This document shows positions 23,005-59,500 of a stretch of 64,000 bases of DNA, one piece after another. The notes below the pieces were generated by a model, which worked only from the letters and a program-made list of their open reading frames with translations, ran no database searches and had not been told where the DNA came from. Origin of the DNA: Nemertoderma westbladi. Taxonomy: Eukaryota > Animalia > Xenacoelomorpha. Position numbers and translations under genes: made by a program. The stretch is from the NCBI GenBank assembly GCA_032718475.1, contig JAUCBJ010008942.1:29682-93681 (forward strand), written 5' to 3'. Numbering within the stretch: the first letter of the stretch is position 1; each line of letters opens with the position of its first letter.

Positions 23005-23056
23005 GTTTACCGGTCGACCGGTACTTTCAACTTTATTGCTTACTGCAATAAAGACA

Positions 23057-23067
23057 ATAACTGTTAT
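23057..23067 (-). promoter_or_regulatory. Non-tRNA primer-binding site of B1 (ATAACAGTTAT), complementary to its own LTR
   Basis: Directly abuts the 5' LTR, has no TGG, and is the exact 11-nt reverse complement of the LTR sense sequence at 23812-23822 (9270-9280 in the 3' LTR). Confidence 0.7.
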
Positions 23068-24248
23068 TGTACGCGCTTTTGAAGACCTTTAGCAGTTTAA
23101 CCTGCCAAAATTTATATGTCTTTTGGTTTATAAATAGACTTTAGTAAATGACAAATATTTAATACCAATAAACACAACATTAGCCGAAGCCAGCCTAGTG
23201 CGCGTCCATTCACCCGCTGGATATACCCGGGAGACTGGATTCGGAGGGCTTAGATTGTTATTGCAGTGTAAGCTTACTGTATTATTCGATTGATCGTTAA
23301 TAAATAATTTCTGACCAATATTATTCACTTTCGGGAAATATTAACAGTTCCTTTAGGACGTGGCGCTCTATCTAGGTAAACAGAGATATGACTTATGCTA
23401 AACACAACGGTAAGTCGGTAAGGCTTATGATTCACGTATGAGGCGCATTCTTTAGGAAATGCTTAGTTATCAGCCACAATCATGCACACTACCGGTACCA
23501 CACAATACTGCACACTAATCTGCCGACCGTCAATGAATTTTATCATATATAAAGAGAACAGCAATTGACTCATGTAGTGCCTATCAAATAGCATTAAACT
23601 CACTACAAACCACGATAATATAAGTCGCAATCGCTATATGTAACCTGTCTCTCTAACCTGTAGTGTATCAAGAAAATTGGGAAATTTGGGTTATTTATCG
23701 ATGTTCTCCAAGTAATAATATTCAACCAAACAACAGTAAAAACCATTAAGACGGTAGGTTAAGATATGATATGACAATGTACTGATAATGTAACAATGAT
23801 ATGATGTGCCGATAACAGTTATACGCTCTATAATCTAAGCCTACTAATGTTTCTTCTAAAGTCTGAAACGAATTGACTCCAGAGCCGGTGTTCTTGGCCT
23901 AGATAGAAACAACAAAACAGTATCAAGAAAAACAGTAAGACTGAACACTCCTAGCACGATCTGTAGAATATCTCCACATCGACAATAAAAATCGCCCTGA
24001 TTGGCTGTTAAGCTAAACAAAGAACCATGTGTCCAACGGCCGTTTCCATGCCAGCAACCAGCTGTTAGATGTCGTAATCTGAATCATCAAGGCTACACTG
24101 TGCTAGAGGATTTGACGCATTGCGGGTTTTGTGCCTTGCCATGTCCGCCAAAGCACACATATAGAAGAATGACTTTTATGTCCGTTAAAACACCTACAAC
24201 GGTACTTTGCGGGCAAGGGGACTGATTATATCCGCAAAAGCTTTTACA
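23068..24248 (-). repeat. 5' LTR of B1
   Basis: Direct repeat of 8526-9706, followed by TSD GTAAA. Confidence 0.95.
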
Positions 24249-24253
24249 GTAAA

Positions 24254-24445
24254 GACGAGGTCATACCAGATCTACTTCTCTGGCAACCAACTCATGGAAA
24301 GCGTAGTCGTGGACGACCTGCCATAACATATATAGATCAACTTGAAAGGGATACTGAACTTGGGAGAAACGAAATTGCGACAACTATGGAGAATCGGGAA
24401 GCCTGGAAGGATCTCATTTCCACTGTCCGAGTTCGCTCGACCTAG
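24254..24445 (+). pseudogene. LINE ORF, C-terminal part (RGRP motif), stop codon merging into the (TAG)n tail
   Basis: Manual translation DEVIPDLLLWQPTHGKRSRGRPAITYIDQLERDTELGRNEIATTMENREAWKDLISTVRVRST*, in frame with 8525 once the TSD is removed. Confidence 0.9.
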
Positions 24446-24653
24446 TAGTAGTAGTAGTAGTAGTTACTGATCCTAGTCTGTAATAATACTGATATATACT
24501 CTAGGTGTATACCGGTATTCTAATATTAAGATATATACTACATTACATTGAGTAGTGATATAGGTAACTACTAGGCTGACAGTTGATACTGATTTCCCCT
24601 AGACTTGCTTTAACTGTTATTATAGTAGTAGGCATTCAACTGTAAAATAAATT

Positions 24654-35282: not shown

Positions 35283-35868
35283 TGTTAGCGGATTCAATTC
35301 CGCTAACCACCCCATAAAGTTGGGAAACGGCACCTTTAAGCAATATTGGGGAATACGAGATTGATTACCAATCAACCTCGTATCACCCCCAATAAATGTG
35401 GACAACAAACCCCAAAGGGCCGCACACAAAGGGAGGTCAGAGGTTAAACCTCCGGGAGGGGAAAGTAACAGCAGTGGTGGGGGGAAACAATCCCACAGAG
35501 TCGAGGGCGAGAATTAGGTTATTGGCCAATGGGAGCCAAGAAACGCATCCACTGGGTACAATGGCCATAGGTAATGTAGATATATAATATTACCGGTTAG
35601 TGCCCAACATTCAGTTTACGCAGTCATCAGGTGCAGTACGGTGACATTTCGCACCGTCACCGTCACTACAGTACAAACAACATATTGTATTTACCGGTAC
35701 TCAGTTATCTCATTATATCACCATTCAATTATCTATCAACTGTGCTGTGATATCTATGTGTCAACCTATAACAACTCGAACGATAACAACTACCATATTT
35801 TCTTCTTCTCATCAACACGGTGATGCGTAGCGAAACAAAACCGGTCGGGATCCACTGATCCCGTCACA
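35283..35868 (+). repeat. 5' LTR of A2, with TATA-like TATATAA (35581) and Inr-like TCAGT (35611)
   Basis: TGTTAGCG...CCCGTCACA, repeated at 42202-42781; the CATTCAGTTTAC block is conserved in the A3 LTR about 20-30 nt after a TATAA. Confidence 0.9.
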
Positions 35869-35877
35869 GTGCGAAAT
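35869..35877 (+). promoter_or_regulatory. Non-tRNA primer-binding site of A2 (GTGCGAAAT), complementary to its own LTR
   Basis: Abuts the 5' LTR; reverse complement of ATTTCGCAC at 35646-35654. Confidence 0.72.
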
Positions 35878-35899
35878 ACCCAAACTGGAAACTGTGACT

Positions 35900-38800
35900 G
35901 CCAGACTCAAGTAGGACAGAGATAAGATGAGTCAAGAAAGAGAGACGACAAGTAGGACAGAGATAAGATGAGTCAAGAAAGAGAGACGACACCGCCACGG
36001 ACCCCGGACAATACGAACGAAACGATCCGCTAGGCCGCGACACGACGGTATCGACCCGCAACACTGGACTCGCCGGAGAGGAGCGAACCGGTAGCTCAGG
36101 CGGAGGGCGGCCGTCTACCACAATGAGGGACAAGCGAGTGGAGAGAAGGGATAGACGAGTCGACGCACGACGGCACACGAGGTACCGATGTCGCCGGCCA
36201 GCCACAGGTCGAGGGCGGCAGACGGCCCACAGGAACGGCGACGGTGGGGCCTCCGGTACGACGCCGAACACGGAGAGAAAGAGGAGAGGTCGGCGATGAG
36301 GACGTCGGAGTTAGCGACCGGCTCCGGCGGGCCTACAACGCGACGAGGAAGCAGATAAAGGAAGCTAAGGAGGGAGCAAAACTAGATCAGGTGAAGCTAG
36401 AGAAGCGGCTAGGTGAGTCGAATAGACATCTTAACTATCTAGTCCGCTATGGACAAGGAGAGTTGGCGGGTGGAAGAGCGAGAGGGGTTGCCACCGAACT
36501 GTTCGAACTGTGGCAGTCTAGGGGTATTGAGCCTGGTGTAGTGTACATAGGGCCGTACTTAGTGGATGCCAGGGGAAATAAGTTAGTGAGTTGGGCGGGA
36601 CCGCGGGAGGGTGAATCCGAGGTTAACCCCGAGGATTCGGTCTCGCCGGTCGGCGAAAACCTCAGAAAGCAGGGGAAAGTTAGTAGGACGGGGAGGCGAC
36701 GGGAGTCCGTCGCGACCGACAAGTCTGCTAAATCCTCCGCAAAAGTAAGAAGGGTGCTAGAAATAGATCTGGCGTGCCAGTTGGATATCGTGTTGCTAGA
36801 CCAAAAGGAGTTAGAGAGGCAGTTGGAGGAAGGAGCTGCGTTGCTAGAGAGAGAGAGAGAGTTGGCGAGGGAGTGTAAAGAGAGAGCTGAGAGGGTAGCC
36901 AGGAACTGTAGGGAGCAAGAAGAGAGGGAGAAAAAGAAGCGCGAGGAGCGAGAAGGGAGGGAGAAAGAGGAGCGCAAGAGGGAGAAAGGGGAGCGAGAAG
37001 GGAGGGAGAAAGAGGAGCGTGAGAGGGAGAAAGAGGAGCGTGAGAGGGAGAAAGAGGAGCACAAAGAACGAGAAGCAAGAGAGGCAGCGAGGGTGGAGAG
37101 AGAAACAATTGAATGTAGAGAGCGGGTGGCGAGAGAAACAGAGTTAGCGAACCAGAGTTTGCGAGAGGATAGGGAGAGAGAGAGAACGGGGAAGCGTGTG
37201 CGGGATGATATGCACGCCTGGCTGAGGGGGCTTATGCAATATCAGGCCAAACAGAAGCGCCGACTAGAACTGGCACAGTTGGGGCTGTCAGAAAGTGAGG
37301 CTGGCTCGGGTAGTGTTTATGAGGAGCCAGAAGTTATGGAAACGTTTGTTAATACTCCACTTGCAGGGACCGGACGACAGACCCAAGACTGGTGTAACCG
37401 TACGGGCGGGGGGTAATAACAATACTTTAGAGAACGTTAATATTAATAGTACCGTAGTAGATAACCCTAATCAAACTTTCATTGCAGGAAATAATATTTT
37501 GCCCGATAGTAGTAATTTAAATCCGAACGATTTTAATATAAATGTACAAAGTAGTCCAAATAATTTAAATAATAATATATAATTACGCAAAATAATTCAA
37601 ATAATATAATTACGCAAAATAATTCAAATAATAATCTTAATTCGAACGAACAGAATAATCCCGTTTCAAATTCAAATAATTCTAATAATTTAAATAATTT
37701 AGAAAATAGAGTTGGTAATGGTGCTATTAATATAAACGTGGCGGATGCAGGTGGCCCGGCAAATGAGAACCTGGTAGGCCACGTAGTCAGTAGGCAGGGA
37801 GTAACGGGGGTGAGAAACCACAATGAGAGCCTGGTAGGCCACGTAATCAGTAGGCAGGAGGTGGCGGGGGTGAGAAACCCCAGTGAAAGCCTGGTAGGCC
37901 ACGTAGTTAGTGCGCAGGGAGTGGCGGGGTTGAGTCAACCCGACGTGGGCCTGTCAGGCCACACAGTGATAGAGGGAGAGGCGGGGGTGAGTAGACCCAG
38001 TGTAGTTAGTGCGTCGACTTGAGAGGGGTGTAGAGGCGAAGTGACAGATATTGAAGTGATATGTGGCGAGCGGGGGGGGGGGGGGGGGGCTACAGGAGCC
38101 CCACAACGAGAGATTAGCGGCGAGTGGGGGGGGGGGGCTACAGGGGCCCCACAATGAGAGATTAGCGGCGAGAGGGGGGGAGGGCAGAGAGTGTCCCGCA
38201 GGCGTCGGCGGATAATGCGCGGGGCGAATTAGGTGAACCGCAGCACCCGGCGATGGAGAATAGTAGGGGGATTACGAGTATCCCCAGCAGCGTGCGACCG
38301 AGTAGAGAGAGAGAGGTTAACGTCGCGAGAGGGCGAGCGACGAGACGCCGAGCCCAGTCAGAAGAGGGAAGAAGAACAGTGGAGTTTAACCGGGAGGTCG
38401 ACGAGAGATCTCACAAGCGGGGACACTGCACTGCAGAGAGAAGAAGGGAAGAGAGTAGAAGAAGTGTCGTCTCGAACGACAGAAGAGCAAAGACGGATAG
38501 CGAGACAGGGAGTACGGGCACCCGGCCAAGATCATCCGGCAGACCCTGAGAGGTATAACATTGGGTGGCCTGCAGGATAACCCCGTTAGCATAAAGACAT
38601 TGGCAAACAAAGTCGAGAAGGCACTAATCGTGTTGAAGACGTTAGACGCGCCATACAAACTCAACGCATCTAATAATATCACCACGATAGTGCCGGCACT
38701 GCCAATCTGGCTGCGCAGTAAGTGGAGAAAAATCGTTTTCTCCACCCGAGAGAAGAAGGGTGCGGAACCGGGCCTAGAGGAAATGTCGAACTTCCTCAAC

Positions 38801-40593
38801 TACGAAGCTGAGTTGATCACGGACCCAGTCTATAGCAAGGATAGTCTGGGAAAGGCGCCAAGGGCCGAATACAACAGGCCGAAACCAGAGCACAATGCGG
38901 CAAACGCATTACCAAAACTAAGACAATCCCTACCATACACGGCGACACAGGGGACAGCCAGTCCACGGATAGTTGGGAGTGGGGCCAGACCGTGGCATGA
39001 ACAGGGACAAAATAACAACACGAACAAACATAATCCCAAGACGCCCAGTAGGCCAAACCCAAATAACCAAAACACAAAATCGGTAGACGTGAACTTATGC
39101 GCAATATGCGTAGGGCTGTATAAGGAACGTTACAACCCGGGATACGAATGTCAATTGCATAAAGACGGAACCCATAAGACCATGGACTATAAGCATTGAC
39201 AGGCGTTACCCGAACAAGATCGGAAAGCCTATGCGGATAAGATTGCAGTCTGTCACCGATGCGTGGTAGGAGGACACAAGGTTGAAGAGTGTAAGGAGAC
39301 ACCAATTAAGTTCGGTCAAGGCAAAGGGCAGACAATGGCGACAAGCACCATAGGGGCAAAGAAGAGAGGAACAGTACTACTCGGGGTAGTACCAGTGAGG
39401 GTAATCGGGGAAGGCGATCGATCAGTAACCACACTGATGCTGGTCGACAGTGGAGCAGCCTTCACATTGGTCGAGAATTGGGTGGCCGAAGAGATAGGAT
39501 TGAAAACGAGACCAAGTAGAAGGGCGGTAACAACCATCTCCAGCAAAGATGAGGTCCTGGAGATGAGGACTGGACGGTGCGGGATAGCAGCGATAGCACC
39601 GGGATGCGATTATGGGGCGACGATCGACCCCATCCAGGTGATAGAGTCGATAAATATTAACGCCAGGCGACCAACCAACATCGAGGTCGAACAATATAGG
39701 TTCCTGGACAGTATCGACTTCTCGATACCAGAAGTGGACGTTAGGAAGGTATCCATTATAGTAGGAATGGACTGCCCGACCGCCAACGAGAGAATGCAGA
39801 CGGTCTTCGGGAAGACAAATAGCGTGACCCGGAGGCAATCTTAACACCATTCGGGTGGACGCTAAGTGGCCCAATCAAAACCAAGATACCATTTAGGATG
39901 TTGGAGATATCAGGGTGCATGTTCGCGGGAACTATGCGGGAGATGGAAGACGAAGGAGTGGAGGAGCAGCTCAGGAGACTGTTTAGACAGGATTTTGAGG
40001 GATTGAAAGAGAACGGGGTCGGAACCTCGGTAGAAGATAAGCAGGCTTTACAAAGCGTAAAGGAGTTGATGACATGCGACGAGGGGCGGTATACCATAGG
40101 CATGGTATGGAAACAACCAAAACTACCGTTACCCGACAACAAAGGAATGGTACTCACGAGGCTTCGTAAGTTAAAGCAAACGCTAAAACGGAGCCCCGAA
40201 AAGAATGAGTACATTCATAAGACGATTAGGAAGTATGTCGAGAAAGGATGGGCCGTGGAGTTACCGGTCGACGAACCGAACACGGACAGGACCTACTACC
40301 TACCACTTCACGTGGCTCTAGATCCGAAGAAAGGTAAACTACGGATGGTAGTTGACACATCAGCTAAGACCAACAGCAAATGCCTAAACGATTATCTGTT
40401 AGAGGGTCCCAATATCTACAACTCAGGGATCGAGGTCCTACTCAGATTCAGAAATTGGAAGCACGCCTTCACATGCGACATTGAAGGCATGTTCAACCAA
40501 GTCCGTGTTACGGAGGAGGATAGTGATGGCCAGCGCTTCCTATGGTACAACGGCGATGAGGAACCGTCGACAATAACAACACACAAAATATAA
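35900..40593 (+). pseudogene. gag-pol: A2 gag-protease-RT fragments
   Basis: Glu/Arg coiled coil (36244..37416), Asn-rich tract, 20-aa LVGHVVSRQ repeats, LPIWLRSKW Gag segment, CQLHKDGTH knuckle, LVDSGA protease, and YYLPLH / FTCDIEGMFNQV BEL-type RT truncated before YxDD. Confidence 0.85.
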
Positions 40594-42201: not shown

Positions 42202-42781
42202 TGTTAGCGGATTCAATTCCGCTAACCACCCCATAAAGTTGGGAAACGGCACCTTTAAGCAATATTGGGGAATACGAGATTGATTACCAATCAACCTCGT
42301 ATCACCCCCAATAAACGGGGACGACAAACCCCAAAGGGCCGCACACAAAGGGAGGTCAGAGGTTAAACCTCCGGGAGGGGAAAGTAACAGCAGTGGGGGG
42401 GGGGGAAACAATCCCACAGAGTCGAGGGCGAGAATTAGGTTATTGGCCAATGGGAGCCAAGAAACGCATCCGCTGGGTACAATGGCCATAGGTAATGTAG
42501 ATATATAATATTACCGGTTAGTGCCCAACATTCAGTTTACTCAGTCATCAGGTGCAGTACGGTGACATTCCGCACCGTCACCGTCACTACAGTACAAACA
42601 ACATATTGTATTTACCGGTACTCAGTTATCTCATTATATCACCATTCAATTATCTATCAACTGTGCTGTGATATTATGTTATAACAACTCGAACGATAAC
42701 AACCACCATCTTTACTTCTTCTCATCAACACGGTGACGCGTAGCGAAACAAAACCAGTCTGGATCCACTGATCCCGTCACA
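42202..42781 (+). repeat. 3' LTR of A2
   Basis: Direct repeat of 35283-35868 with scattered differences. Confidence 0.92.
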
Positions 42782-45182
42782 CGCATCGTAATGGTACGTA
42801 TATGGACTTCTTAACTACTGGTCATTTGTGGTCATCCTATCGATTTACATGATACGGACGATGTAGACACCGAAAGGGAAATGATTCTATTTAAATATCA
42901 TGCTCAGCGGAGTCGGAATGATAAACTGAGAATTGAACATGAAAATTCTATTCGAAACCAACTCTAAAGAGAAGATGTTGAAGAACCGGATAAACGTAAT
43001 GACTTCAACGAATATTTAGAATTCTTGAGAGAAACTTATCTCAATGTGGCTAGTCAACAAAATCTAGAAACTCGATATCCTCAAGGTATACATCATAACC
43101 CTACGGTAGAACTCATACGACTCTATTGTACTATGATGTATCTTACCGCCGATCGACCGCTACCTGTTGTACTGGATAGCTTCGAATAGATGGAGGAATA
43201 TTGAAAAACTGGAGAAAGATCACCAGCGTTTCCCTTACAAGACGTGCGTCTTTGCTATTACTGCGATGAATGCCCTAGACCCAATCAACAAATGGAAAGA
43301 CATAAAAATCCGCGGAGACGTTGCGCTAAACACAGTGTTACTAGCTATACTTATGGGAGTTTTGAGCGAAACTTATTCGATGTATCACCTACGCTCGCTC
43401 GACTCAAACGATCCTTGAATAAACCTATGATCAGAGTTCCGGAATACTCGGTCAGACCTCCTCATTCCCTGGTGCGACCTCAGACTCTTGATCCTAATAG
43501 TGTGATGGATCCTCCTGAATTGTACTCATTGTTCAAAGATCTAGTATTAATAATAACATATTTGAATGTCCTCATCAGAGAAATCGTTAATCGAGTTTCA
43601 TTGCTAACTTTACAAGGTTAGCAATTTATACCCCTGGAGCCGGACCTCCTAAAAAGATCTAGTATTACCCGAACAATTATACGGTGGCACTCCGGTTGTG
43701 GGCTCTCTAGATATTTGCCCATCCTACCTAGCCGGATTGGGACGCGGACATCTAATATCTCGGTTCAACCCATATAATCGTCCCGGTTTAACTCCGATAC
43801 AAACTGTAACTGAGGTGGAGGAAAGCTTTGTACGAAATGCGCTAGACGCTATTCGGCAAAAGATCGGAAAAGGAACCTACGATTATTTAGACAAACGTAA
43901 ATTGCAACAACAAGTCCAAGCGGTAAAAGAATTAGCTTTACCCCAGTTCGATCGTGAAATCCAGAATTTTGAGGAAGATATCGAACTTGGACGAACATAC
44001 TCTCTACAAGAGTTCTTGGACGAACGCTTCCAATGACAAGCGGAGGAGAATCAGCTCGAAGAGAAACATATCAAAATGGATGATGGAGAATAAGCAGCTT
44101 TAGCCCAACCGGAAGCTCAAATCCTTATGACTGATCTCTATTCCAAAACCATCATTCATCCTTCGATGGTTCCCCATTTCGGAGATAAACTCTTCGCCAC
44201 AGCACAACCCCAACTGGTTGATATAAACTCAAGATCTAGAGATCTTATCGCTGATGCTCCTATGCTACAACGTCCACCAATCGAGGCTGCTCGTGTCGAC
44301 GGTATACTCGTTGAACCTCCGGACAATCGAGAGGATCTCGTCCGTCGTCTGGTACACGAGGTCAACCTATGCGCTAGACCTTTACCGAAATCTTTTATGG
44401 GATCAAAGATCATCCATATTATGTCAATTTAACTCACTATTATATGGTGAAACCGGAAGATCCTAGACACAGTTTAAAGTTTCTACCTTTGATAAATCCC
44501 CGCGATCTTGTTGAACTCAAACAACTACAGAAACATTTAGATCAATTGGTTAAAGTAAACTCATTCAGAAAACCTTATAATGTTTCAAGAATAGAAAAGG
44601 ACATAATACCTCCGTATAATCTTGATGGATTCATTAAAACTCGATTAGTCCATTGGAGTTTATATGTATTGTTTGAGGAAGAAAGAATACGGTGACTTGT
44701 TCTTAAACTCGCATCCTGGGTTACAAGAAATTCATAGACGACCATATGAATATAAAGCCAGAGAACGCGAATTAGAGAGAACAATCAAACCGCGGAAATT
44801 TCTCACTACACACGGTCAACCTACCGCTGTCGTACAAACGACCCATCAAGGACCGGTAAGAGCTGCCGTCCTGAAACGAGCTCTAAAGGTTGTTCGCCCT
44901 CATTCCACCGATGTTGATATCGATCAACCGGGTACCTCGACCGGCGGATACACCGACCGTAACCCAAAACCTTCTGATGCAATCGTATTGCACCCTTCCC
45001 CCAGGAGTTATAGCCCTCCTAGTAAAGTGGCTCGCCCCAAAGAGAAAAAGACTCTTACTAGTCTCAAAAAACTTCGTAAACGCCGTTCACAAAAGAAGGA
45101 CTGATAGTTTAGAGTATTTTTGTATTTTAGAAACTGTAATTTTTCATATTTTATAGACTTAAATCCCATTTTCTGGGAGCGA

Positions 45183-46329
45183 TGTAAAATCTTTTGCAGA
45201 CATAACAAGTCATTTTTACGCAATGCGCAGAATACTCTAAAATAGCCCTAAAATTGTTCAACTATGCATCGGAAAGAAATTAGAACCAAGATGACGAAAT
45301 CTGTCAGCTGATTCTTTGTGTACGTGTACGTCTCTTTGTTCAAGCTTATTCAGCCAATCAGAGCAATCTTCCCAGTTATGCCAGTAGAGACCTACCTGAG
45401 GAAACTAGCGCAATGCATTATGGTTATCTTTTTTCTGAGAATTAGATTCATCTCAGAATTCTGTACTAAGTATGGTCGTTTCAGACTTTGGCCCAAGAAC
45501 ATCTGATGGCCTTAGTTATAAGAACGTAAATCTATTAACTGAACATGGACTTAATCACCGCATTTCACTCATCTCATCTCCTCAATACGACGCATTGCAC
45601 CAAACTGAACTTCATGAACACATACTGACTGTTCACCGCACTGTTTTACTGCTGTTTTATATTGTGTTAATTGTTGTTTATATTAATGGATGTTATATTT
45701 GGAGAATACAGATAAATAATCATAAACCCCATCAATCTTCTTGATTACTGAGGTAAGCGGAGAAAGAGTCTACCGGTAGCAACCCTGCTACCTTATAGTG
45801 GTTTTGTGTGAATTAAATGCTATTTCATAATCCCTACGTGTGTCAGTTGCAATCCTCCTTATATATGATCAAAATCAGTGACGGTCGGCAAATTAGTGCA
45901 AATTAGTGTGAAGTAGTGTGAAGTCGTGTGAAGTCGTGTGAAGGTTAATAAAGCATCTCCTAAAGAATGCGCTATTTACGAAACTCTGTGGCCATCTAGT
46001 TGTGATTAGTGTAAGTCATAACTCTGTTTTTATACTTAAAGCGCCGCGTCCCAAAGGAACTGTTAATATTCCCCCGAAAATAAATATAGTTGTCAGAGAT
46101 TATATATAGTAGCGATCAATCGAATAATACAAAGTAGCTTACACCGCAATACTTCCTAAGGAACCCGAATCTAGTCTCCCACACCGTGGGTCATATGCCG
46201 CGCACGGACTGGCTTCGGCAGATGTAACTTAAGTACACCAGGTAATTGGTAAGGGCTAAAGTCGATTCATAATCAAAAGGACATTTAAAATTGGCAGGTT
46301 AAACTGCTAAAGGTCTGAAAGCGCGAACA
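45183..46329 (+). repeat. 3' LTR of B2 (diverged from the B1 LTRs)
   Basis: TGTAAAA...GCGCGAACA; preceded by CCCATTTTCTGGGAGCGA as in B1; blocks such as GGCAGGTTAAACTGCTAAAGGTC match the B1 LTR. Confidence 0.88.
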
Positions 46330-46469
46330 ATTACTAAAAAGAAGAGTATTAAATAGCAAAAAATATTACCATGACAACAGGTTAATTATTGTTCCCCATT
46401 TGGAAAAATCATCTAACATAAATGCAATAATTTTTATTGTTTAAATCCGTTTAAATCCATTTTTTGTCC

Positions 46470-46666: not shown

Positions 46667-46827
46667 ATATATAGAGCACTATTTTGTAGTATATTGCATG
46701 TACAGATGTAGGTATAAAGCAGGTATTTTAGGTATTTTAGTACCGGTACCGGCACCGGTACTGCTGTGTAGGCCTACTGTGTAGCCTACCATTTAAATAC
46801 GGTACTGGTAGGCCTACCGGCTGACCG

Positions 46828-47850
46828 GTTGTTTTGGTTAGAAAATCCTGCCTCTGTAACCTGCTCCTTTCCCTGATTTGGTAAAGTTACCGTTTATTGT
46901 TTTGGTTAGAAAGGCCCGCCTCTGTAACCTGCTCCTTTCCTTCATTTAGTAAAATGACTGTTTATTGTTTTAGTTAGAAAATCCCGCCTCTGTAACCAGC
47001 CCCTTTCCCTCAATTAGTTGAATTATCGTTTATTGTTTTGGTTAGAAAGTCCCGTCTCTGTAACCTGCTCCTTTCCCTGATTTGGTAAAGTGACCGTTTA
47101 TTGTTTTGGTTAGAAAGGCCCGCCTCTGTAACCTGCTCCTTTCCTTCATTTAGTAAAGTGACTGTGTATTGTTTTGGTTACAAAATCCCGCCTCCGTATC
47201 CTGCCCCTTTCCCTCAATTAGTTAAATGATCGTTTATTGTTTTGGTAAGAAAATTCCGCCTCTGTAACCTGCCCCTTTCCTTCAATTAGTTAAGTGATCG
47301 TTTATTGTTTTGGTTAGAAAATCCCGCCTCTGTAACCTGCTCCTTTCCCTCAATTAGTTAAGTGATCGTTTATTGTTTTGGTTAGAAAATCCCGCCTCTG
47401 TAACCTGCTCCTTTCCCTCAATTAGTTAAGTGATCGTTTATTGTTTTGGTTAGAAATTATCGTCTGTGTAACCTGCTCCTTTCCCTGATTTGGTAAAGTG
47501 ACTGTTTATTGTTTTGGTTAGAATAACCCGCCTATGTAACCTGCTCCTTTATCTCAATTGGTAATGTTATCGTTTATTGTTTTGGTTAGAAAATCCCGTC
47601 TCTGTAACCTGCTCTTTTCCCTGATTTGGTAAAGTGACTGCTTATTGTTTTGCTTATTGTTTCGCCTATGTAACCCGCTCCTTTTCCTCAATTAGTTAAA
47701 TGATCGTTTATTGTTTTGGTTAGAAAGGCCCGCCTCTGTAACCTGCTCCTTTCCTTCATTTGGTAAAGTGACTGTTTATTGTTTTGGTTAGAAAATCCGG
47801 CCTTAACCTGCTCCTTTCCATCAATTGGTAATTGTTTTTGGCTATAAAAT
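46828..47850. repeat. 68-bp minisatellite, ~15 copies
   Basis: Unit TTATTGTTTTGGTTAGAAAATCCCGCCTCTGTAACCTGCTCCTTTCCCTCAATTAGTTAAGTGATCGT; period 68 measured at 47341/47409; ~7 further copies at 57836-58320. Confidence 0.92.
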
Positions 47851-50829
47851 GAGTGTTTTGCTACGTCATGTGGTAATCGATTATCGACAACAACCACAAA
47901 CTACAGTATTAAATTTAGAGTCTATTACCACAGGCGCATATGGAAATCTATCTCATAGTCTATAAATCATGGAATCATGGAATGTTTTGGCACAGGCATA
48001 GTGAAACCAACTGTCTGACAGTCCAGAAATTAGCAGTCTGACAGTTTGAAGAAATACATACATAAAAAGTCATTAAAAGGACAACAAAACTCATTAAAGG
48101 GGCAACAAAAGTCATTATGCAGAATTCGTAAAAAAAGCTAGATAAAAAAAGTCAAATAAAAGGACATAAAAAATCACTGCCTAACATAAATAACTAGGCC
48201 CTATACGCATAAATATATTATCTCTTAGACCCTCTTGATCTCTAGTAGTGGACCAATTTAAATGGACCTGTGGTAGTCCTGTAACCATGGTCACAAGTCA
48301 CTAAATATATTCTGCCAAATTTAATAGACGTAATATCTAAAAAAAGTTCCATTCTGGATCTAGTGTCTTACATGTTGCCAAGTACGGATAATTAATTCCG
48401 ACCATTCAAGTTTGCCTCTGTTGCCAAGGCAACCGATAATATTTGGAATGTGGACAACTTGACAACAATATGAACACTGCAGTATATAGAAACATATTAT
48501 GGACAAAAATTTTAAAATTTATTTATGTTTACTTACTATACTTATCATTGTTCTATTTTTGAGTTACCATGACAACCGCTGAAAACAGATGTTTTTATAC
48601 AAAAATAACTCATTTGGACATAGACTTCCCGATAAGATTTTATGAAACTAGTTATGTGTTTTCTGGACCACTAGTTGGAACTTTTAGTGAAACTCAAAGC
48701 ATTCCCGAAATATCTAATTACCATGGTTACTGTAGTTTAATAAAGTCTATATCATTCAATCTATATTCATAACTCTATTTGTTGCAAAACTGCAATATAT
48801 AGAAACTTAGGGTTTTTCAACTCAATGATAAGGGCAATAGTCGAGCCGATTGAGGTTAATTAGAAAATCCAGTTACCAGGGCAACCAGGCTAAACAGACG
48901 TTTAAATTTATAAAATGATTATTTAAACCATAACATTACGACTTGGTACCAACCCGTTCCCCCACTATATCACTTATTCTCCATCTGAATTACATTGTTC
49001 TATTTCTCAGTTTCCATGACAACCACAGCAAACAGACGATTTAAGAAATTCCACGAAGCTAAGGAAAATCAACTACTTTCGCTAAGAAAGATTTTTCTTA
49101 GCTGAGATGGTCTATTCATAGTGGGCTATTTTACTTGTGTGAGGCAGATTTGGGGTTTTTTAACTCCAGAAAAATCTAGCATTTAAGAGTACCATGAAAT
49201 TTAGCATGTATATACTACTCGTCGAGGCGCATCTTTTGAGATGGGTCTCATATCCAGGAAAAATCTAGTTTCCATGGCAACGGACTTAGAATATAGTCTA
49301 TGTATTTAAGTCAATATTTATAACTCTATTTGGAGGAAAACTATAATAGATATAAACTTGGGGTTTCTCAACACAACTATAAGGTCCATAGCAGAGCCCA
49401 TTGAGGTTAAATAGAAAATCCGGTTACCTTGGCAACCGGGATAAACAGATGTTAAAATTGATCAAATGTTAATTTGAAGACAAAGGACAAGGTGTTATGA
49501 CTTGGGACCAACCCCTACCCCCACTATATAACTTATTCTGCGTCCAAATTTCATTGTTCTATTTTGCAGTTACCATGACAACCGCTGAAAACAGATGTTT
49601 TTATACAAAAATTACTCATTTGGACATAGACTTCGCGATAAAATTTTACGAAACTGGGTATGTGTTATCTGGACCACTCGTTGTAACTTTTAGTGAAACT
49701 CAAAACATTCCAGAAATATCTAGTTACCGTGGTGTCTGGAGTTTATTAAAGTCTATATCATACAAGTCTAAATTCATAACTCTATTTGTAGAAAAACCGC
49801 AATAGATGTGACGGGATCTGCGGATCCCGGTTTATCCGTTGGGTTTTCTATCCACGCGTCCCCGCCGTGTGTGAAAGGTAAAAGAGTTCTGATGTTGGGT
49901 AATATGTATAAAGGTATAATAGTCTGATAGTTGATATAGTATAGTATGACACAACAGGTAATATATAATGGCGGTAGCGGACGGTGACAGAAGTCCCCGT
50001 TCCACCCTACTGATCTGACTGAGTAAACTGAATGAATGATTACAGGTTACTGGTTATATTGCACGGTGGCCTTATTGCTACTCAATCGATGCCTTTCCCC
50101 CCTCTGATTGGTTGATACCCTTGTTGGCACCCCGTGGAGTGTTCCCGTTCACTCCTCCTGTTCTCTCTGGGTTAGGGGTTTGGCCCCTGACCCCTATTGT
50201 GTGTGTCTCCTTTGGGGCCTATTGTCCCCGTTTACTGGGCTGACACGAGGTTGATTGGTAATCAACCTCGTGCTCCCAATATTGCTTTATGGCTCACTCT
50301 ATGGGTTTGTGTTAGCGGAATTGGATAAGCTAACACTCCCCCCCATGCTATCTTCCCGGTGAGAAGATAGCATCCAACTCAAGTGCGCTACAATTCCGCT
50401 GGATCCCGATCTAGCATCGGGTGTGGGGTGGGTATATTTTTTCGGAGTCGGCTTTCCAGGCCGCTCCCTATGGCTATGATGTCACTACCCTCTGGCGTCT
50501 CGTGTCGGGCCGATCGTGCGCTTCTCTCACACAATTTTTGTTTCCCCAACACTCTCACCACTCTACTCCAACTCTCGCATACTCCCGGACCTCCTCGTCC
50601 CACACTCTTCCTCTCACTTCTCCTCCCCCACACTTGAATTGCGCCCACGCTCTCTTCGCACTCCGCACTATTACTCCATCCCTCCTTGACTACCTTATCC
50701 CTTCTGACGAATCTCACCCCCCCTCCGTGCCGTCGCACTCAGGAAATGTGAAATCGTCTGGCGTCTTGTCCCTAGTGCCATAGTCACTTAGCCCCCCAGT
50801 CCCAGTAGCTAATTGAGAAAGGTTGTATG

Positions 50830-52700
50830 ACTATAGTACTTACACCACTCTCTCCGCACCCCGCACTATCACCTCTCCACTCTCTTGTCACTCCCTAAGG
50901 CTTTAATCTCTAATGCTACCCCTGTGCTATCATACTATCTACCTACTGCTTACTAACTCTAACTATCTAACTAACTCTACTAACTACTAACTCTACTCTC
51001 CGCTAACTCTCACTACTTCTGGCTCTAACTAAAGCCTCTAACTTTCTACTAACTCTAACTAGAACTACTAAGTCTAGCTAACTCCTACTAACTCTCTACT
51101 TCTACTAACTCTACTTGACTCCTCTGAGTCTACCAACTCTGCTAACTAGCTCTACTAACTCTACTCCACTAGCTCTGCTAATTCTACTCCACTAGCTCTG
51201 CTAACTCTACTCCACTCTTCTAACTACGTGGCGCCTGCGGTGCCCACAACCACTCTACTATATGGCACCCTATGTGCCCTTCTACTACTCAACTACCTCT
51301 CTAGCTCTACTACCTGGCACCCTATGTGCCCTCTCTGCTCTACTCTACTACCTGGTACCCTATGTGCCCTCTCTACTACACTACTACCTCTCTAACTCTA
51401 CTACCTGGCACCCTATGTGCCCTCTCTACTACTCTACTCTATCTCTAACTCTCTAACTCTACTACCTGGCACCCTATGTGCCCTTCTACTATTCTACTCT
51501 CTGGCACCCTATGTGCCCTCTCTGCTACCTCTAACACTCTACTCTACTACCTGGCACCCTATGTGCCCTCTCTACTCTTCTACTACCTGGCACCCAATGT
51601 GCCCGTCTCTACTCCTCTACTCCCCCTTTACGTCTCATCGCCTACACGTGACGCTCTGAGTGCCGGCAGAGTGGGTACGTTAATTATGTGAACTACTACT
51701 GACTCTACTAACTCTCTTCTAACTCTACTAACTCCTTTTGTGCCCGGCACCTCTTGTGCCCGGCACCTCTTGTGCCCGGCACCTTCTAACTCTACTAACT
51801 CTCTACTAACTCAACTAACTCTACTACTAACTCAACTAACTCTACTACTAACTCCTTTTGTGCCCGGCACCTCTTGTGCCCGGCACCCACCCTAATTAAC
51901 ATACCCTGCTCTTACATCAAACACATCATCACGCCCGTGCCCCACTAAGTTCAGCGCATTCCCTACTAACTCTAACTACGTGGCGCTTACGGTGCCCACA
52001 ACCCTCTACTGCTACTACTAACACCCCTAACTAGCGGTACTACGTACCCTCTTACTACTCCTAGCTCTCTCTACTAGCTAGCGGTACAACGTACCCTCTT
52101 ACTACTCTAGCTCTCTCTACTAGCTAGTGGTACTACGTACCCTCTTACTCTTACTAACTCTCTAACGGTACTACGTACCCCTTAACTCCTACTCTCTAGC
52201 GGTACTACGTACCCTCTAACTCTAACTCTAGGTACTACGTACCTACTAACTTTCTAACTCTAGGCACTACGTACCTACTAACTAACTAACTTTAGGTACT
52301 ACGTACCTACTAACTCTCTAACTCTAGGCACTACGTACCTACTAACTAACTAACTCTAGGTACTACGTACCTACTAACTAACTAACTTTAGGTACTACGT
52401 ACCTACTAACTCTCTAACTCTAGGCACTACGTACCTACTAACTAACTAACTCTAGGTACTACGTACCTACTAACTCTCTAACTCTAGGTACTACGTACCT
52501 ACTAACTAACTAACTCTAGGTACTACATACCTACTAACTCTAATTCTAACTAGCGGTACTTACATACCCTCTAACTCTCTTCTACTAACGGTACTACACG
52601 TACCCTCCTACTAACTCTTCTACTAACGGTACTACACGTACCCTCCTTTAACTAACTAACTAACTAACTAACTACCTAACTTCTACCTACTCTATTATTT
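50830..52700 (-). repeat. Low-complexity 3' region of A3 with stem-loop arrays
   Basis: 8x GGCACCCTATGTGCC (51263-51605), 5x GTGCCCGGCAC (51740-51890) and ~18x GGTACTACGTACC (52036-52645, 32-bp period over 52231-52550), all in CTA/CTAA-rich spacers. Confidence 0.88.
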
Positions 52701-52712
52701 AATTATTTTTAA

Positions 52713-55700
52713 TTAAATAATTATTTTATATTTTGTGCGTGGGAAGGGCGTCTCGCCCTCATTCCCACCCCCCTCAGTCCAAAACTTTGGACGACTAAAA
52801 ACTCTCACGTGCCCCTTCTTCCAGTAGGCACTCTCCTGCTGCCCTCCTATACGTCCTCTAACTCTTCGCCACACTCTCTTCGGTGCTACCTTTGCTGGCC
52901 TTCCCCTTCGTATGTGCGCTGGCATTAAGGCCCTCGACGACCCCCGCTCGTCCCTCGGTATACGCGGTGTCTGCCCGTGCAATGCCCCCTCGCACTGTGT
53001 CCGTCCTGCGTGTGTATGCGACACGCCTCCTTCTACTTTCCCGACTCCCTTATGTTTGCTAATGGGCTTCTCTGCCCCTGGTTTAGTCCTTTCATATCCT
53101 TTCCCTTTCCAACACTCTCCGGATCTGTGTCCTTTTACCACACATCGATGACATAGTCCGTTTGCGTCTGTGTAGGCTACACGATCTCGTTTGGGCAACG
53201 CTTGCCAGTACTTGCAACTCCTGGTCTTATGGGTTCCGTCCCGATGTAATTGACATTGGAATCCTGGATTATAGCGCTTCCTGTATAGTCCTTCACGTAT
53301 CGCGCTTAGGTTTATATGTACCGATTTAATGTTTTGGTTGTCTAGACTCGGCCTACTGGGTATATTGGGATTGTTTTTATTTACGGTGTTATTTTCTTTC
53401 TGTCCCTGCCACGGTGTGGCCCTACTACCAGGTAACTGTGGACTGGTAGTCCCCTGTATGGCCGCGTGTGGTGGTGACTGTCCGCATGACCTGCTCTCGT
53501 CCAAGGGGTTCGATGTTCTCGCTCCTATTGGGGTATATTGTCGATATTGTGATGGGGGAATGTCACCCTGTCCCCCCCCGGCCGGTATGTTTGGTACTGG
53601 GGTTGATGTTAATACATTGGGGCCCATACGTCTATCTCCAATAACTCCCCCCTCCCCTGGATATATGTTATGTCCCTGTGTATTATAGTCATGCTGCTGT
53701 ACCAATATAGGCCTACCTACCTCTCGCCTACCTACCGGTATGTACTCCGCGACTTCCGGGTTTAATCCCGTCGTTCGCGCTACCCTATCGCCTACTCTAT
53801 CTCTCCCAGCATGGCCTATAATAGTATGTGCAGTAAGGCCTACAGTATGTCCTGCAGTCTGCATGTGCCCTTCCGAACCGAAGTTTATTCTTCGCGAATC
53901 TCGAATCTCCCCGCGACTACTGCACTCTCGATCGACAGCTATATCCCGTCGGGAAGCTTCTCTCCGATCCCCTCTCCTGTCTCGACTCTGTATTGGTACG
54001 TCTTGTACCCCTCTCTTGGCGTGCGGTGCGTTTCTCCGGGGCGACGGCAATCTCCCGAAGTTCGACCCCACTGGCTCCCTGACTCCATCTCTACTATCGA
54101 CGGTCCGTTATCCGTCCTCGCACTCCTATCGTTCGTGGCGACACCTCTTCTACTATCTTCTCTTCTTCTCTTTTCTGTGTAGTATTCCGGCTCATGAGAT
54201 CTCTCGTCGACCTCCCGGTTGAACTCCACTGTTCTTCTTCTCTCTTCTGATCGGGCTCGACGCTTCATCTGCCCTCTCGCGACGTCAACCTGCCTCTCTC
54301 TGCTCGATCGCACGCCGCCGGGGATACTCGCAATCCCCCTATTACTCTCCGTCGCCGGGTGTTGCGGTTTACCTGATTCGGCCCGCGCATTATCCGCTGA
54401 CGGCTGTGGGACACTCTCTGCCCCCCCTCTCTCGCTACTAATCCCTCGCGGTGGGGTGCCCGTAGCCCCCCCCCCCCCACCCGCCACTTCTAACTTCACT
54501 ATTTCTTACTACACTTCTATACCCCTCTTGTGGGGCATTCTCTGCCCCCCCTCTCTCGCCACTAATCTTATGTGGTGGGGCGCCAGCAGCCCCCCCCCCC
54601 CCCCACTCGCCACATCTAACTTCACTATCTCTCACTTCGTCTCTACACCCCTCTCTAGTCGACGCACTGTCTCTACTACGGCTGGGTCTATTCACCCCCG
54701 CCTCTCTCTCTACTACTGCGTGGCCCATCAGGCCCACCTTGGGTTGGCTCAACCCCGCTACCTCCTGCCTACCAACTACGTGGCCTACCAGGCCGCCGTC
54801 GGGTTGGCTCAACCCTGCCACTTCCTGCCTACTAACTACGTGGCCTACCAGGCCCTCGTCTGCTGAGTTATGTACGTCCGACACGCTCATATTAATAGCA
54901 CCATTCCCAATATTATTTGTTAAATCAATTAAATTATCAGAATTTGAAACGAGATTTAAATTATTTAAATTAGAATTATTTGAATTTTCAAAATTTAAAT
55001 TATTATTCGTACCATCCGAATCATTCTGAATATTTGAACTAATGTTATTATTTGAATTTAAACTTAAATTACTACCACCGGGTAAAATATTATTTCCTGT
55101 AATAAAGGGATTAGGGTTATTTACTACGGTACTATTAATATTATCTACTTCTAACGTACTATTATTACCCCCCCCCGCCCGTACGGCTACACCAGTTCTG
55201 GTTCTCTCGCCCGGTGCCTGTAAGTGGGGGCTCACTCTCTGATATCTCCAACCGCGCCAGTTCTAGTCGGCGCCGTTTAAGTTTGGCCCGATATTGCGCA
55301 AGCAGCGCCAGTCGGACAAGCAAAAGATCTCGCTCACGCTCTTGCTTTAACTCTCTCTCTCTGCACACTCGGAACTCTCTCGCAAGCATCCCAGGCTGCC
55401 TCGCCGGCTCGCTCTCTATTCTCCCCATCATTATCCCGATATGCTCCCGATCTCTATGCTCCTCGGCCCTCTCTCTATCCTCCCTTACCAACTCTAATAA
55501 TGCGGTTTGCTCTCTCAATTGCCCCTCTAACTGTTTCCGCTCTGCCGCCGCCTTTTCTAATTTATACGCCACGCGTTCACTCTCTCGCACCCGTCTTTCT
55601 TTTGCGGAGGATGTAGCAGACTTATCGGTTGCGACGGACTCCCGTCGCCCCTCCGTCCTACTAACTTTCCCCCGCTTCCCGGAACTTCCTCCGACCGACG

Positions 55701-56469
55701 AGACCGAATCCTCGGAATTAACCTCGGATTCGCCCTCCCCAGGTCTCTTCCAACCCACTAACTTAACTTCCCTGGCATCGACTAAGTATGGCCCTATGTA
55801 CACTACACCAGGCCCCATACCCCTACGTTCCCATAGCCCAAACAGTTCGAGGGCAACCCCTATCGCTCTCTCCCTGGCCAGTTCTCCCTGCCCAGAACGC
55901 ACTAGGTGATCAAAGTATCTGTTCGACTCACCTAGTCGTCTCCTCAGTCTCACCTCGTCTATCTTCGCCCCTCCTTTGGCCTCTCTCAGTTGCTCCCGGG
56001 TCGCGAGGTAGGCCCGTCGAAGTCGATCAGAAACCCCGACGTCCTCGTCGCCGACCTCTCTTCCGTCTCTCCGGGTCCGACGTCGTACCGACGGCCCCAC
56101 CGTCGCCGTTCCAGTGGACCGTTCGTCGTCCTCGGCCTGTGGCTGGCCGGTGACATCGGTATGTCGACCCTCGCTCCGCGTCGACTCGTCTTTCTCTTCT
56201 CCTCCCTTCTCGTCTCCTTCCCTCGACTCGCTCTCCGGTTGTAGACGACCCCCCACATCTTGGTTCGCCGGGTTGCTCGTTGTCGACGTGGCGTCAACCT
56301 GCGTCGACGTGGTCGGCGTAGCATCGACCGGCGTCGTGGGTTCGTATCGTCTCGCCGTGGCCTCGCGGATCGTTAGATCGTCGTCCGGGGTCCGCGGCGG
56401 TGTCGTTCCTCTCTCTCGACTCATCGTCGTCTTTGGTGGCTGGCAGCCACGTTGATAACAATCTATCAC
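52713..56469 (-). pseudogene. gag: A3 gag-derived ORF fragments
   Basis: ORFs 55165..56469, 54438..55235, 53939..54499 and 52713..54071 are homologous to A2 gag (PGVVYIGPYLVDAR, LVGHVVSRQ repeats, CQLHRDGTHKTRSC, CHRCVVKGHRSGEC); no PR/RT/IN motifs seen. Confidence 0.85.
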
Positions 56470-56494
56470 TGTCAGGGCAGCTGGGCGGATCTGA

Positions 56495-56503
56495 TTCTGT
56501 CAC
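56495..56503 (-). promoter_or_regulatory. Non-tRNA primer-binding site of A3 (GTGACAGAA), complementary to its own LTR
   Basis: Abuts the 5' LTR (starts at 56504); the LTR sense strand has TTCTGTCAC at 56681-56689. Confidence 0.72.
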
Positions 56504-59500
56504 TGTGACGGGATCTGCGGATCCCGGTTTATCCGTTGGGTTTTCTATCCACGCGTCCCCGCCGTGTGTGAAAGGTAAAAGAGTTCTGATGTTGGGTAAT
56601 ATGTATAAAGGTATAATAGTCTGATAGTTGATATAGTATAGTATGACACAACAGGTAATATATAATGGCGGTAGCGGACGGTGACAGAAGTCCCCGTTCC
56701 ACCCTACTGATCTGACTGAGTAAACTGAATGAATGATTACAGGTTACTGGTTATATTGCACGGTGGCCTTATTGCTACTCAATCGATGCCTTTCCCCCCT
56801 CTGATTGGTTGATACCCTTGTTGGCACCCCGTGGAGTGTTCCCGTTCACTCCTCCTGTTCTCTCTGGGTTAGGGGTTTGGCCCCTGACCCCTATTGTGTG
56901 TGTCTCCTTTGGGGCCTATTGTCCCCGTTTACTGGGCTGACACGAGGTTGATTGGTAATCAACCTCGTGCTCCCAATATTGCTTTATGGCTCACTCTATG
57001 GGTTTGTGTTAGCGGAATTGGATAAGCTAACAATAGATATAAACTTGGGGTTTCTCAACTCAACTATAAGGTCCATATACATTGCTTGTATATTATACAA
57101 GCCGTTCGAGGTTAATTACACAATCCAGTTCCCTGCAAACAATTTAACGTTAATAATGCATTAATATACGTTATTTTCTGACAATGCCAACGTTAATTAT
57201 TAACGTAAAAAATACATATAAATAACGTTAGTTTGGCCGCCCTTTAACAGTGAAATAATCCAACAATTAGATAATAAATTGACTAAGCCTAAAGTAGGAG
57301 CTGTATTGAATGTTAACCAAATTAATATATAAATTACTACAATATTATATAATTCAACAAAATCCTATTAAAAATATTGCAAGTAACCAGGAAATTTAAT
57401 TAATTTATCAATATGTAATGCTGAACACAGAATACAGGTCGACGCATGTCGATTTTACCCTGGAGAGGTATAGTTTTGATTGCTACAATAATATTCATCC
57501 CCATCTGCTACAATTAGAAGTCGACTATTACATAATAATAGTATAATTACAATATAATTAAAACAATTAATTGTTATAATTATATAGTTAATAAAAACAG
57601 TATATCATTCGGGGGAATGAATTTATAGGTCATCTAATTAATTGTTTAAAAATTAGCAAACAATACAATGTAATTACATTGATAAAACCCATAAATAAAA
57701 CTTGGATATAAAATGTAAAATCGGGATGCAAAAGATCACTTTCTGTGCTAAGAAAGGACAATTTTATACAACTTGTCTGGATACAAGCGGTCCGTTTACC
57801 TTACAAAATGAAAAATAAGAATGTGCGAAGTTAAAATCGTTTATTGTTTTGGTTAGAAAATCCCGCCTCTGTAACCTGCTCCTTTCCCTCAATTAGTTAA
57901 GTGATCGTTTATTGTTTTGGTTAGAAATTATCGTCTGTGTAACCTGCTCCTTTCCCTGATTTGGTAAAGTGACTGTTTATTGTTTTGGTTAGAATAACCC
58001 GCCTATGTAACCTGCTCCTTTATCTCAATTGGTAATGTTATCGTTTATTGTTTTGGTTAGAAAATCCCGTCTCTGTAACCTGCTCTTTTCCCTGATTTGG
58101 TAAAGTGACTGCTTATTGTTTTGCTTATTGTTTCGCCTATGTAACCCGCTCCTTTTCCTCAATTAGTTAAATGATCGTTTATTGTTTTGGTTAGAAAGGC
58201 CCGCCTCTGTAACCTGCTCCTTTCCTTCATTTGGTAAAGTGACTGTTTATTGTTTTGGTTAGAAAATCCGGCCTTAACCTGCTCCTTTCCATCAATTGGT
58301 AATTGTTTTTGGCTATAAAATGAGTGTTTTGCTACGTCATGTGGTAATCGATTATCGACAACAACCACAAACTACAGTATTAAATTTAGAGTCTATTACC
58401 ACAGGCGCATATGGAAATCTATCTCATAGTCTATAAATCATGGAATCATGGAATGTTTTGGCACAGGCATAGTGAAACCAACTGTCTGACAGTCCAGAAA
58501 TTAGCAGTCTGACAGTTTGAAGAAATACATACATAAAAGTCATTAAAAGGACAACAAAAGTCATTAAAGGGGCAACAAAAGTCATTATGCAGAATTCGTA
58601 AAAAAAGCTAGATAAAAAAAGTCAAATAAAAGGACATAAAAAATCACTGCCTAACATAAATAACTAGGCCCTATACGCATAAATATATTATCTCTTAGAC
58701 CCTCTTGATCTCTAGTAGTGGACCAATTTAAATGGACCTGTGGTAGTCCTGTAACCATGGTCACAAGTCACTAAATATATTCTGCCAAATTTAATAGACG
58801 TAATATCTAAAAAAAGTTCCATTCTGGATCTAGTGTCTTACATGTTGCCAAGTACGGATAATTAATTCCGACCATTCAAGTTTGCCTCTGTTGCCAAGGC
58901 AACCGATAATATTTGGAATGTGGACAACTTGACAACAATATGAACACTGCAGTATATAGAAACATATTATGGACAAAAATTTTAAAATTTATTTATGTTT
59001 ACTTACTATACTTATCATTGTTCTATTTTTGAGTTACCATGACAACCGCTGAAAACAGATGTTTTTATACAAAAATAACTCATTTGGACATAGACTTCCC
59101 GATAAGATTTTATGAAACTAGTTATGTGTTTTCTGGACCACTAGTTGGAACTTTTAGTGAAACTCAAAGCATTCCCGAAATATCTAATTACCATGGTTAC
59201 TGTAGTTTAATAAAGTCTATATCATTCAATCTATATTCATAACTCTATTTGTAGCAAAACTGCAATATATAGAAACTTAGGGTTTTTCAACTCAATGATA
59301 AGGGCTAATAGTCGAGCCGATTGAGGTTAATTAGAAAATCCAGTTACCAGGGCAACCAGGCTAAACAGACGTTTAAATTTATAAAATGATTATTTAAACC
59401 ATAACATTACGACTTGGTACCAACCCGTTCCCCCACTATATCACTTATTCTCCATCTGAATTACATTGTTCTATTTCTCAGTTTCCATGACAACCACAGC

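Follow-up and report, generated by a model that had tools for sequence, protein, structure and literature searches.

Three BEL/Pao long terminal repeat (LTR) retrotransposons (i.e. A2, A3 and B1) in a 64,000-nt stretch of contig JAUCBJ010008942.1 of Nemertoderma westbladi (the window) lack a tRNA-type primer-binding site (PBS) and carry, at the end of the 5′ LTR, a short sequence complementary to a motif within that LTR. These elements and their relatives probably (a probability of about 0.6) prime reverse transcription with a piece of their own RNA, which would be folded back and cut in the manner of the Tf1 retrotransposon. Self-priming had been proposed by a model from the letters of the window (the sequence-only reading); the six PBS and motif strings behind this proposal were all found in place, each pair forming an exact reverse complement of 9 nt in A2, 9 nt in A3 and 11 nt in B1. 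The LTR ends of these elements were set by the paired LTRs and the target-site duplications (TSDs), independently of the complementarity. The reported lack of TGG at the three 5′ LTR junctions was also observed, the first TGG being at +18 in A2 and +55 in A3 with none in 60 nt in B1. BEL/Pao elements are described as tRNA-primed, as that reading had noted, with the International Committee on Taxonomy of Viruses (ICTV) giving host tRNA priming and an 18-nt PBS for tRNA-Arg or tRNA-Gly (PMC8742986). The window elements depart from this trait (i.e. an 18-nt PBS against the 3′ end of a host tRNA), having no TGG within 17 nt of their junctions. The departure concerns the priming trait; the protein lineage stays BEL/Pao, an identity proposed earlier and borne out for B1 by Pfam and for A2 by a remnant of a BEL-type reverse transcriptase (RT). 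No tRNA gene was found in the 64-kb window.

The complementarity was described at the outset as unlikely to arise by chance, and shuffling agreed: the exact motif occurred in seven (A2), one (A3) and one (B1) of 1500 dinucleotide shuffles of the element's own LTR. With a looser search (offset 0–5, spliced forms allowed), 9 (A2), 8 (A3) and 5 (B1) of 612 background windows were equal or better. Each A-family PBS was also said to track its own LTR; this was exact for the 5′ LTRs of A2 and A3, and failed by one mismatch for the motif in the 3′ LTR of A2. A match built by splicing was sought in A2, A3 and B1 and none was found (best 4–6 nt), their motifs being contiguous.

In host DNA sequencing runs, the summed depth of both family A and family B was very high. 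The nearest variants of A3-like copies were at PBS +10 and +11, outside the 9-mer and the motif (40 of 80 difference rows); the contigs matching A3 do not link PBS variants with motif variants. Among the matches listed, the 11-mer of B1 followed B-family LTR ends in runs X1 and X2. Separately, a loose end in run X5 at 56519 consisted of an A-family LTR end, a short self-complementary stretch and then the LTR end reversed. This fold-back resembles that at the B1 junction (23054–23070) and may be an assembly artefact.

Self-complementarity, introns and phylogeny of related elements

An alignment of the RNase H–integrase region of B1 with its top 20 matches yielded 102 BEL/Pao loci, located on contigs of metagenomes and genomes. 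A strict test was applied to 18 entries with usable LTR ends and the three window elements; the other 84 of the 102 loci had no defined LTR end or were near copies. The statistic was the length of the longest stretch of the LTR exactly complementary to post-LTR sequence (offset 0–5), either contiguous or across any GTR...YAG junction, with the LTR ends of L039 and L094 set by homology. All 16 elements without TGG (A2, A3 and B1 included) exhibited a self-complement of 9–14 nt, a length reached in each case in no more than 9 of the 612 background windows. The self-complement was 4–7 nt in all five elements with a tRNA PBS, and 3′ flanks gave 4–9 nt. In every one of the 16 self-complementary elements the match begins 0–4 nt from the LTR end and the primer would end in AC or AU. 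The letters of the PBS vary between families, and between A2 and A3. One further candidate for a non-tRNA element, L032, was rejected, as a 3′ LTR cut short had misled and a tRNA-type PBS is present at 1520. Scans of viral contigs gave no relative.

Two features of the survey stand apart. The LTRs of L087 (6044–6748) are bounded by TA...AA rather than TG...CA, yet this element has a TSD of 5 bp, and its self-complement, 14 nt long, spans a junction. Several BEL/Pao elements (L081, L083–L091, L093–L097, L099 and L101) reside in contigs filed as bacterial genomes, with L090 in a record titled Wolbachia chromosome; these are most likely host animal DNA binned into metagenome-assembled genomes.

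The best match spans a junction in eight of the 16 elements, belonging to five families (L009, L094, L027/26, L039, L035, L087, L093 and L097). The search demanded only GTR and YAG, not strong splice sites. Among the first-listed donors, 7/8 fit GTAAGT at five or more of six places as compared to 44/240 in the background, the L093 donor being tied between a weak and a strong site, and all eight acceptors had at least 11 pyrimidines in 15 nt as compared to 13/132. Between L093 and L097, the last three exon-1 bases differ, as do the three facing PBS bases, a compensatory change across the junction. The 5′ copy of the L068 LTR bears the intron and the 3′ copy is intron-less and matches 11 nt. A boundary-free scan added seven junction-spanning cases of 10–13 nt with GTAAG donors (L014, L020, L024, L029, L046, L063 and L085); matches of at least 11 nt were obtained for 10/45 further loci versus 1–3/45 for control anchors and 0/8 for the tRNA group. 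Long contiguous matches in the flanks of L084, L087, L099 and L101 from the same scan were judged to be unrelated inverted repeats. As the complement is complete only after intron removal, a duplication at the DNA level is hard to invoke, pointing to an RNA partner. The LTR introns are presumably spliced out of the element RNA. On balance, we lean slightly towards a widespread BEL/Pao lineage that makes its RT primer via the host spliceosome: an intron in the R region of the LTR would split the primer, so that a spliced RNA (possibly a short LTR transcript acting in trans) would be needed, and families A and B would be intron-less forms, with A having a 42–46-nt capped leader that pairs over its full length.

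Phylogenetic trees were generated from 42-row subsets, with six short loci left out. Self-complementary and tRNA types fall on opposite sides of one branch: an LG+G4 tree of 20 self-complementary and seven tRNA-type rows exhibited one change (SH-aLRT, an approximate likelihood-ratio branch support, of 96), as did a mixture-model tree with named proteins (16 and seven rows; SH-aLRT 94). Neither contained an outgroup beyond BEL/Pao, and a root on the tRNA side is an assumption. A2 and B1 are located just outside a core group (support 100) and inside the 94-support branch; both are long branches, A2 with 23% of columns, making their placement less sure. Families A and B probably both belong to a single self-priming side of the tree and do not represent two separate inventions. 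The proposal of self-priming BEL/Pao lineages is supported by self-complementarity on that side of the tree, often only across a predicted splice junction.

The RT of the core group contains the word VHLFG, where B1 reads IQAFG and before which A2 ends. Of the family sequences given by de la Chaux and Wagner 2011, 53 contain VHLFG; the 15 checkable of the 21 listed were all Sinbad, and none of the 10 Suzu families was among the matches listed. By this word, the core self-complementary group looks like Sinbad/Sailor, the Sinbad of de la Chaux and Wagner 2011 being the Sailor lineage of Thomas-Bulle 2018.

Leader folding, priming model and alternatives

In A2 and A3, TATA-like and initiator (Inr)-like words 29–32 nt apart predict the transcription start (+1; Table 1), by which the motif would span +34 to +42 in A2 and +38 to +46 in A3. 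The predicted leader could pair lengthwise with the 42 nt after its own LTR at −34.9 kcal in A2 and −40.7 kcal in A3, energies matched by two and one of 300 shuffles that kept the PBS. Crossing the leaders and post-PBS partners of A2 and A3 gave far weaker duplexes (−24.6 and −22.5 kcal). In full folds of the A elements, the core duplex was 0.9–2.2 kcal above the best structure. Across the self-complementary elements, the motif is downstream of the TATA box wherever this is clear and 0–33 nt upstream of A(A/T)TAAA in 8/15 elements; lying between these signals, it is therefore placed in R. In the relatives L035, L068 and L093, the distance of the motif from the predicted start is ~100–200 nt. 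The Tf1 precedent cited in the sequence-only reading fits the pairing of the PBS with the element's own LTR RNA; the primer itself is predicted to be an internal motif of R instead of the first 11 nt.

In the cis model, the 5′ end of the transcript would fold back and the motif would pair with the PBS. The RNA would then be cleaved directly behind the motif, with the RNase H of RT as the probable enzyme by analogy with Tf1. From there RT would extend through U5 and the rest of R before jumping to the 3′ R; the 3′ LTR copy would supply the 5′ part of R together with its intron. During synthesis of plus-strand strong-stop DNA, the last 9–14 nt of the primer would be copied back into the PBS. In LTR element replication generally, the PBS is rewritten from the primer during plus-strand synthesis. 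Such copying back would explain why the PBS keeps in step with its own LTR even as its letters change. The defective A2 and A3 may borrow RT in trans. We infer the start site, the splicing, the cut and the enzyme.

Several observations weigh against this model. Start sites and splicing are predictions from sequence, and two features are left unexplained: removal of the 5′ intron with retention of the 3′ copy, and the end of copying after just 9–14 nt of a long primer. The PBS–motif duplex is absent from the lowest-energy fold, with pairing probabilities of 0.14 (A2), 0.12 (A3) and 0.00 (B1), and formation of the B1 duplex costs +11.7 kcal, or +6.0 kcal with the predicted intron removed. The extended leader duplex is found in 4/15 elements at ≤8/300 shuffles, a count that ruled it out as a general trait of self-complementary elements. 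The PBS of B1 is a near-palindrome, and its motif overlaps a TATA-like stretch that B2 also keeps, so that this motif could lie in U3. The 9-nt duplexes of A2 and A3 fall below the 10-bp rule of Neumann 2019. Under the loose splice search, unrelated PBS–LTR pairs reached 10–12 nt in three long LTRs; with such chance matches between unrelated elements, single cases are no proof.

A prediction for the host copies of B2 also failed as written. The PBS predicted beforehand from the B2 motif was absent among the matches listed, and B2-like LTR ends were mostly followed by the PBS of B1 in runs X1 and X2. A second PBS class fits the B2 motif only one base out of register, at 9/11 positions in a low-agreement X2 row and 8/11 in one X6 contig; the same rows fit the B1 motif at 8/11 and 7/11. 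This shifted register is at best weak support, after the fact, for pairing in B2. The AC/AU primer-end rule, on which the B2 prediction was based, may not be valid for all of family B.

Delivery of the primer in trans is a possible though distinctly less probable alternative. A short capped LTR transcript, spliced and ending at the LTR poly(A) signal, would be trimmed after the motif and anneal to the PBS, either on an intact, unspliced genomic RNA or on the partner RNA of a dimer. This would explain how the intron is kept in both LTRs over many cycles, accounting for retention better than delivery in cis, and why a poly(A) signal lies close behind the motif; the poor fold-back of B1 would be irrelevant and all complementarity results fit equally. 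Such a short LTR transcript is so far hypothetical, however, the intron loss in L068 fits cis or trans, and Tf1, the sole tested case in the available text of PMC7175516, acts in cis. That the primer is self-made, by one or other route of delivery, is very likely.

A pairing that is real but structural (i.e. for packaging, dimerisation, export or translation control), with another primer, is improbable. Extended leader duplexes and hairpins around the site would suit such a role, and priming is itself deduced. In all 16 elements, however, the match starts 0–4 nt from the LTR end, the place at which minus-strand synthesis has to start; it is confined to elements that lack a tRNA PBS, and no other primer site was found. 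More doubtful still is priming by half of a host tRNA or by another small RNA of the host, as in copia/Osser-type elements, with the LTR match secondary. Several PBSs start with GTTC(A/G)A, which we take to resemble the tRNA T-loop. Such priming is known for Ty1/copia lineages (PMC6317226, available text), but the PBS varies by family and between A2 and A3 and follows the exon-1 changes of L093/L097 base for base, behaviour that a fixed host RNA could not produce. Chance or a local duplication artefact, a concern mainly for B1 with its near-palindrome (which thereby nearly repeats the motif in direct orientation), AT-rich LTR and poor folding, can practically be dismissed, as shuffle and background rates are ~0.1–1.5% per element and the match was seen in 16/16 elements and absent from 5/5 controls.

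Organization of the window

The positions of the window elements are listed in Table 1. TG...CA LTRs, a short TSD and a polypurine tract are present, and B1/B2 have the BEL/Pao domains (i.e. the Pao peptidase/RNase H region, DUF1759, DUF5641, BEL-type RT and an integrase after RT–RNase H). Pfam detected the Pao peptidase and DUF1759 in both B1 and B2 and additionally DUF5641 and an integrase zinc domain in B1 (B1 matches: PF03564, PF05380, PF17921 and PF18701). The closest database relatives of the B1/B2 proteins are BEL/Pao at ~34% identity. The gag-pol frame of B1 is broken into several open reading frames (ORFs), and its LTRs exhibit nine differences in 1181 nt. The LTRs of A2 are 96% alike (TSD CGCAT); pieces of its gag, protease and RT match BEL proteins (E 1e-17 to 1e-39), its coding part ends inside RT, and RNase H and integrase are absent. 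The A3 LTRs have no differences (TSD TCTAT), tblastn gave no pol match in A3, and this element is assigned to BEL/Pao only via its DNA likeness to A2. Lacking a full pol, A2 and A3 are therefore non-autonomous, and the identical LTRs of A3 suggest recent copying in trans.

Table 1. Positions of LTRs, primer-related sites and coding regions in the window
Feature	Position	Strand	Remarks
A1 3′ LTR	1705–2303	−	third motif variant at 1938–1930; 5′ LTR absent from window
B1 3′ LTR	8526–9706	−	purine tract just before
B1 gag-pol, several ORFs	12985–21034	−	DUF1759, protease region, RT, Pao peptidase/RNase H region, integrase, DUF5641 (Pfam and tblastn)
B1 PBS position	23057–23067	−	11 nt, near-palindromic, without TGG
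B1 5′ LTR	23068–24248	−	1181 nt, TG...CA; pairs with 9706–8526; TSD TTTAC
Predicted intron in B LTR, downstream of motif	23102–23657 (LTR 592–1147)	−	from sequence; donor and acceptor kept in B2
B1 candidate self-primer motif	23812–23822 (LTR 427–437)	−	exact reverse complement of PBS; overlaps TATA-like stretch
A2 5′ LTR	35283–35868	+	586 nt; TATA-like box 35581, Inr-like TCAGTT, predicted +1 at 35613
A2 candidate self-primer motif	35646–35654	+	in loop of local hairpin competing with long-range duplex
U5-end hairpin	35847–35862	+	stem of 6 bp, loop of 4 nt; shared by A1, A2 and A3, whose loops differ
A2 PBS and downstream partner of leader	35869–35910 (PBS 35869–35877)	+	partner of whole predicted 42-nt leader
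A2 protease and truncated BEL-type RT	39200–40593	+	domain and tblastn matches
A2 3′ LTR	42202–42781	+	motif at 42567–42575 off by one base
B2 3′ LTR	45183–46329	+	different motif at homologous place 45528–45538; 5′ LTR absent from window
A3 3′ LTR	49807–50335	−	identical to A3 5′ LTR
A3 PBS and downstream partner of leader	56462–56503 (PBS 56503–56495)	−	partner of predicted 46-nt leader
A3 candidate self-primer motif	56681–56689	−	exact reverse complement of PBS
A3 5′ LTR	56504–57032	−	529 nt; pairs with 50335–49807; predicted +1 at 56726

An extra sense ORF with clustered Cys/His zinc-knuckle-like motifs is present between integrase and the 3′ LTR in both families (9784–10818 and 3338–4495 on the reverse strand, with B2 pieces at 43137–43313 and 44685–45101). 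The A1 and B1 versions align weakly with each other (27% over 63 aa, E 2e-5). There was no Pfam match, an atlas search with the A1 version gave only CCHC-type leads with scores <0.9, and no match was found in the 102 related loci among the matches listed. B1's 5′ untranslated region (UTR) is ~2 kb long, with direct repeats at 22802–23005 and 22150–22628 that include a 38-bp unit present ~5 times.

The elements form a three-level nest (4471–46329) in which the 5′ UTR of B2 (forward strand) contains a long interspersed nuclear element (LINE), B1 is inside the LINE ORF and A2 is in the 3′ region of B2. The LINE (~5178–24461) has an endonuclease and RT, a TAG-repeat tail and an 11-nt TSD. At 1705–4500, the 3′ part of A1 and the 5′ UTR of B2 abut head to head near 4470–4500; the absence of both 5′ LTRs at this contact suggests a deletion between two divergent elements. 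A ~3.2-kb unit is in tandem duplication (99%) with a 68-bp minisatellite at 47365–61074 and contains A3 in its first copy; the host DNA runs include many empty sites of this repeat. One long ORF with cadherin repeats (61338–62900, forward strand), a host gene piece, adjoins the repeat cluster.

Comparison with known systems

Replication of the Belpaoviridae is called poorly understood by ICTV (PMC8742986). The window elements resemble this family in the Gag-PR-RT-RH-IN order, Pao peptidase, DUF5641, TG...CA LTRs, 5-bp TSD and purine tract, and differ in the length of B1, which at 15.7 kb is beyond the ICTV range of 4.2–10 kb (PMC8742986). Within BEL/Pao, the core self-complementary group shares the Sinbad-marking VHLFG with Sinbad/Sailor (Sinbad, Sparrow and Surcouf), from which B1 departs. 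The words PBS and tRNA are absent from the Sinbad, BEL/Pao and mollusc papers (PMC554778, PMC3118150 and PMC6238403), and PMC8220671 mentions the PBS only in general. A search of the open literature (i.e. outside subscription journals, Repbase and the primary Tf1 papers) found no report of a self-priming BEL/Pao element or of a splice-built primer.

Self-priming has been reported for Tf1/sushi/Tcn1 (PMC6317226, PMC10085805 and PMC3601003, available text). In Tf1, the RNA's initial 11 bases anneal to the PBS, and cleavage by RNase H falls between bases 11 and 12 (PMC7175516, available text). The likeness to Tf1/Tf2 and Tf1/sushi/Tcn1 consists of the absence of a tRNA PBS, pairing of ~11 nt after the 5′ LTR with the element's own LTR RNA and possible neighbouring helices (PMC7175516, PMC10085805 and PMC6317226, as far as available). 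Tf1/sushi elements are Ty3/gypsy chromoviruses, whereas the window elements have BEL/Pao domains and no match to a chromodomain family in Pfam. The primer of Tf1 is the very start of the RNA, whereas that of the A elements and of the three relatives above is predicted to be internal and, in many relatives, intron-split. The extra helices of A join the leader to post-PBS sequence, unlike the 'pretzel' layout of Tf1. For TAR/Houba/Osr-1 (plant Ty1/copia), self-priming was predicted from PBS–LTR complementarity of at least 10 bp (PMC6317226, available text); these belong to another superfamily and other hosts, and the available text of PMC6317226 has no intron-split primer.

The evidence supports Tf1-like self-priming in another superfamily, through a primer that is internal and often splice-built. 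The primer ends and junctions are predicted to the exact base, so that ordinary RNA sequencing can test the question. If the model is correct, a simple annotation rule would become available for elements left blank by PBS finders, escape from silencing by tRNA fragments may be possible, and an internal, often splice-built primer would couple retrotransposition to host splicing. BEL/Pao would then join Ty3/gypsy, where tRNA-independent priming was shown for Tf1, and Ty1/copia, where it was predicted for TAR, as a third LTR superfamily to prime in this way.

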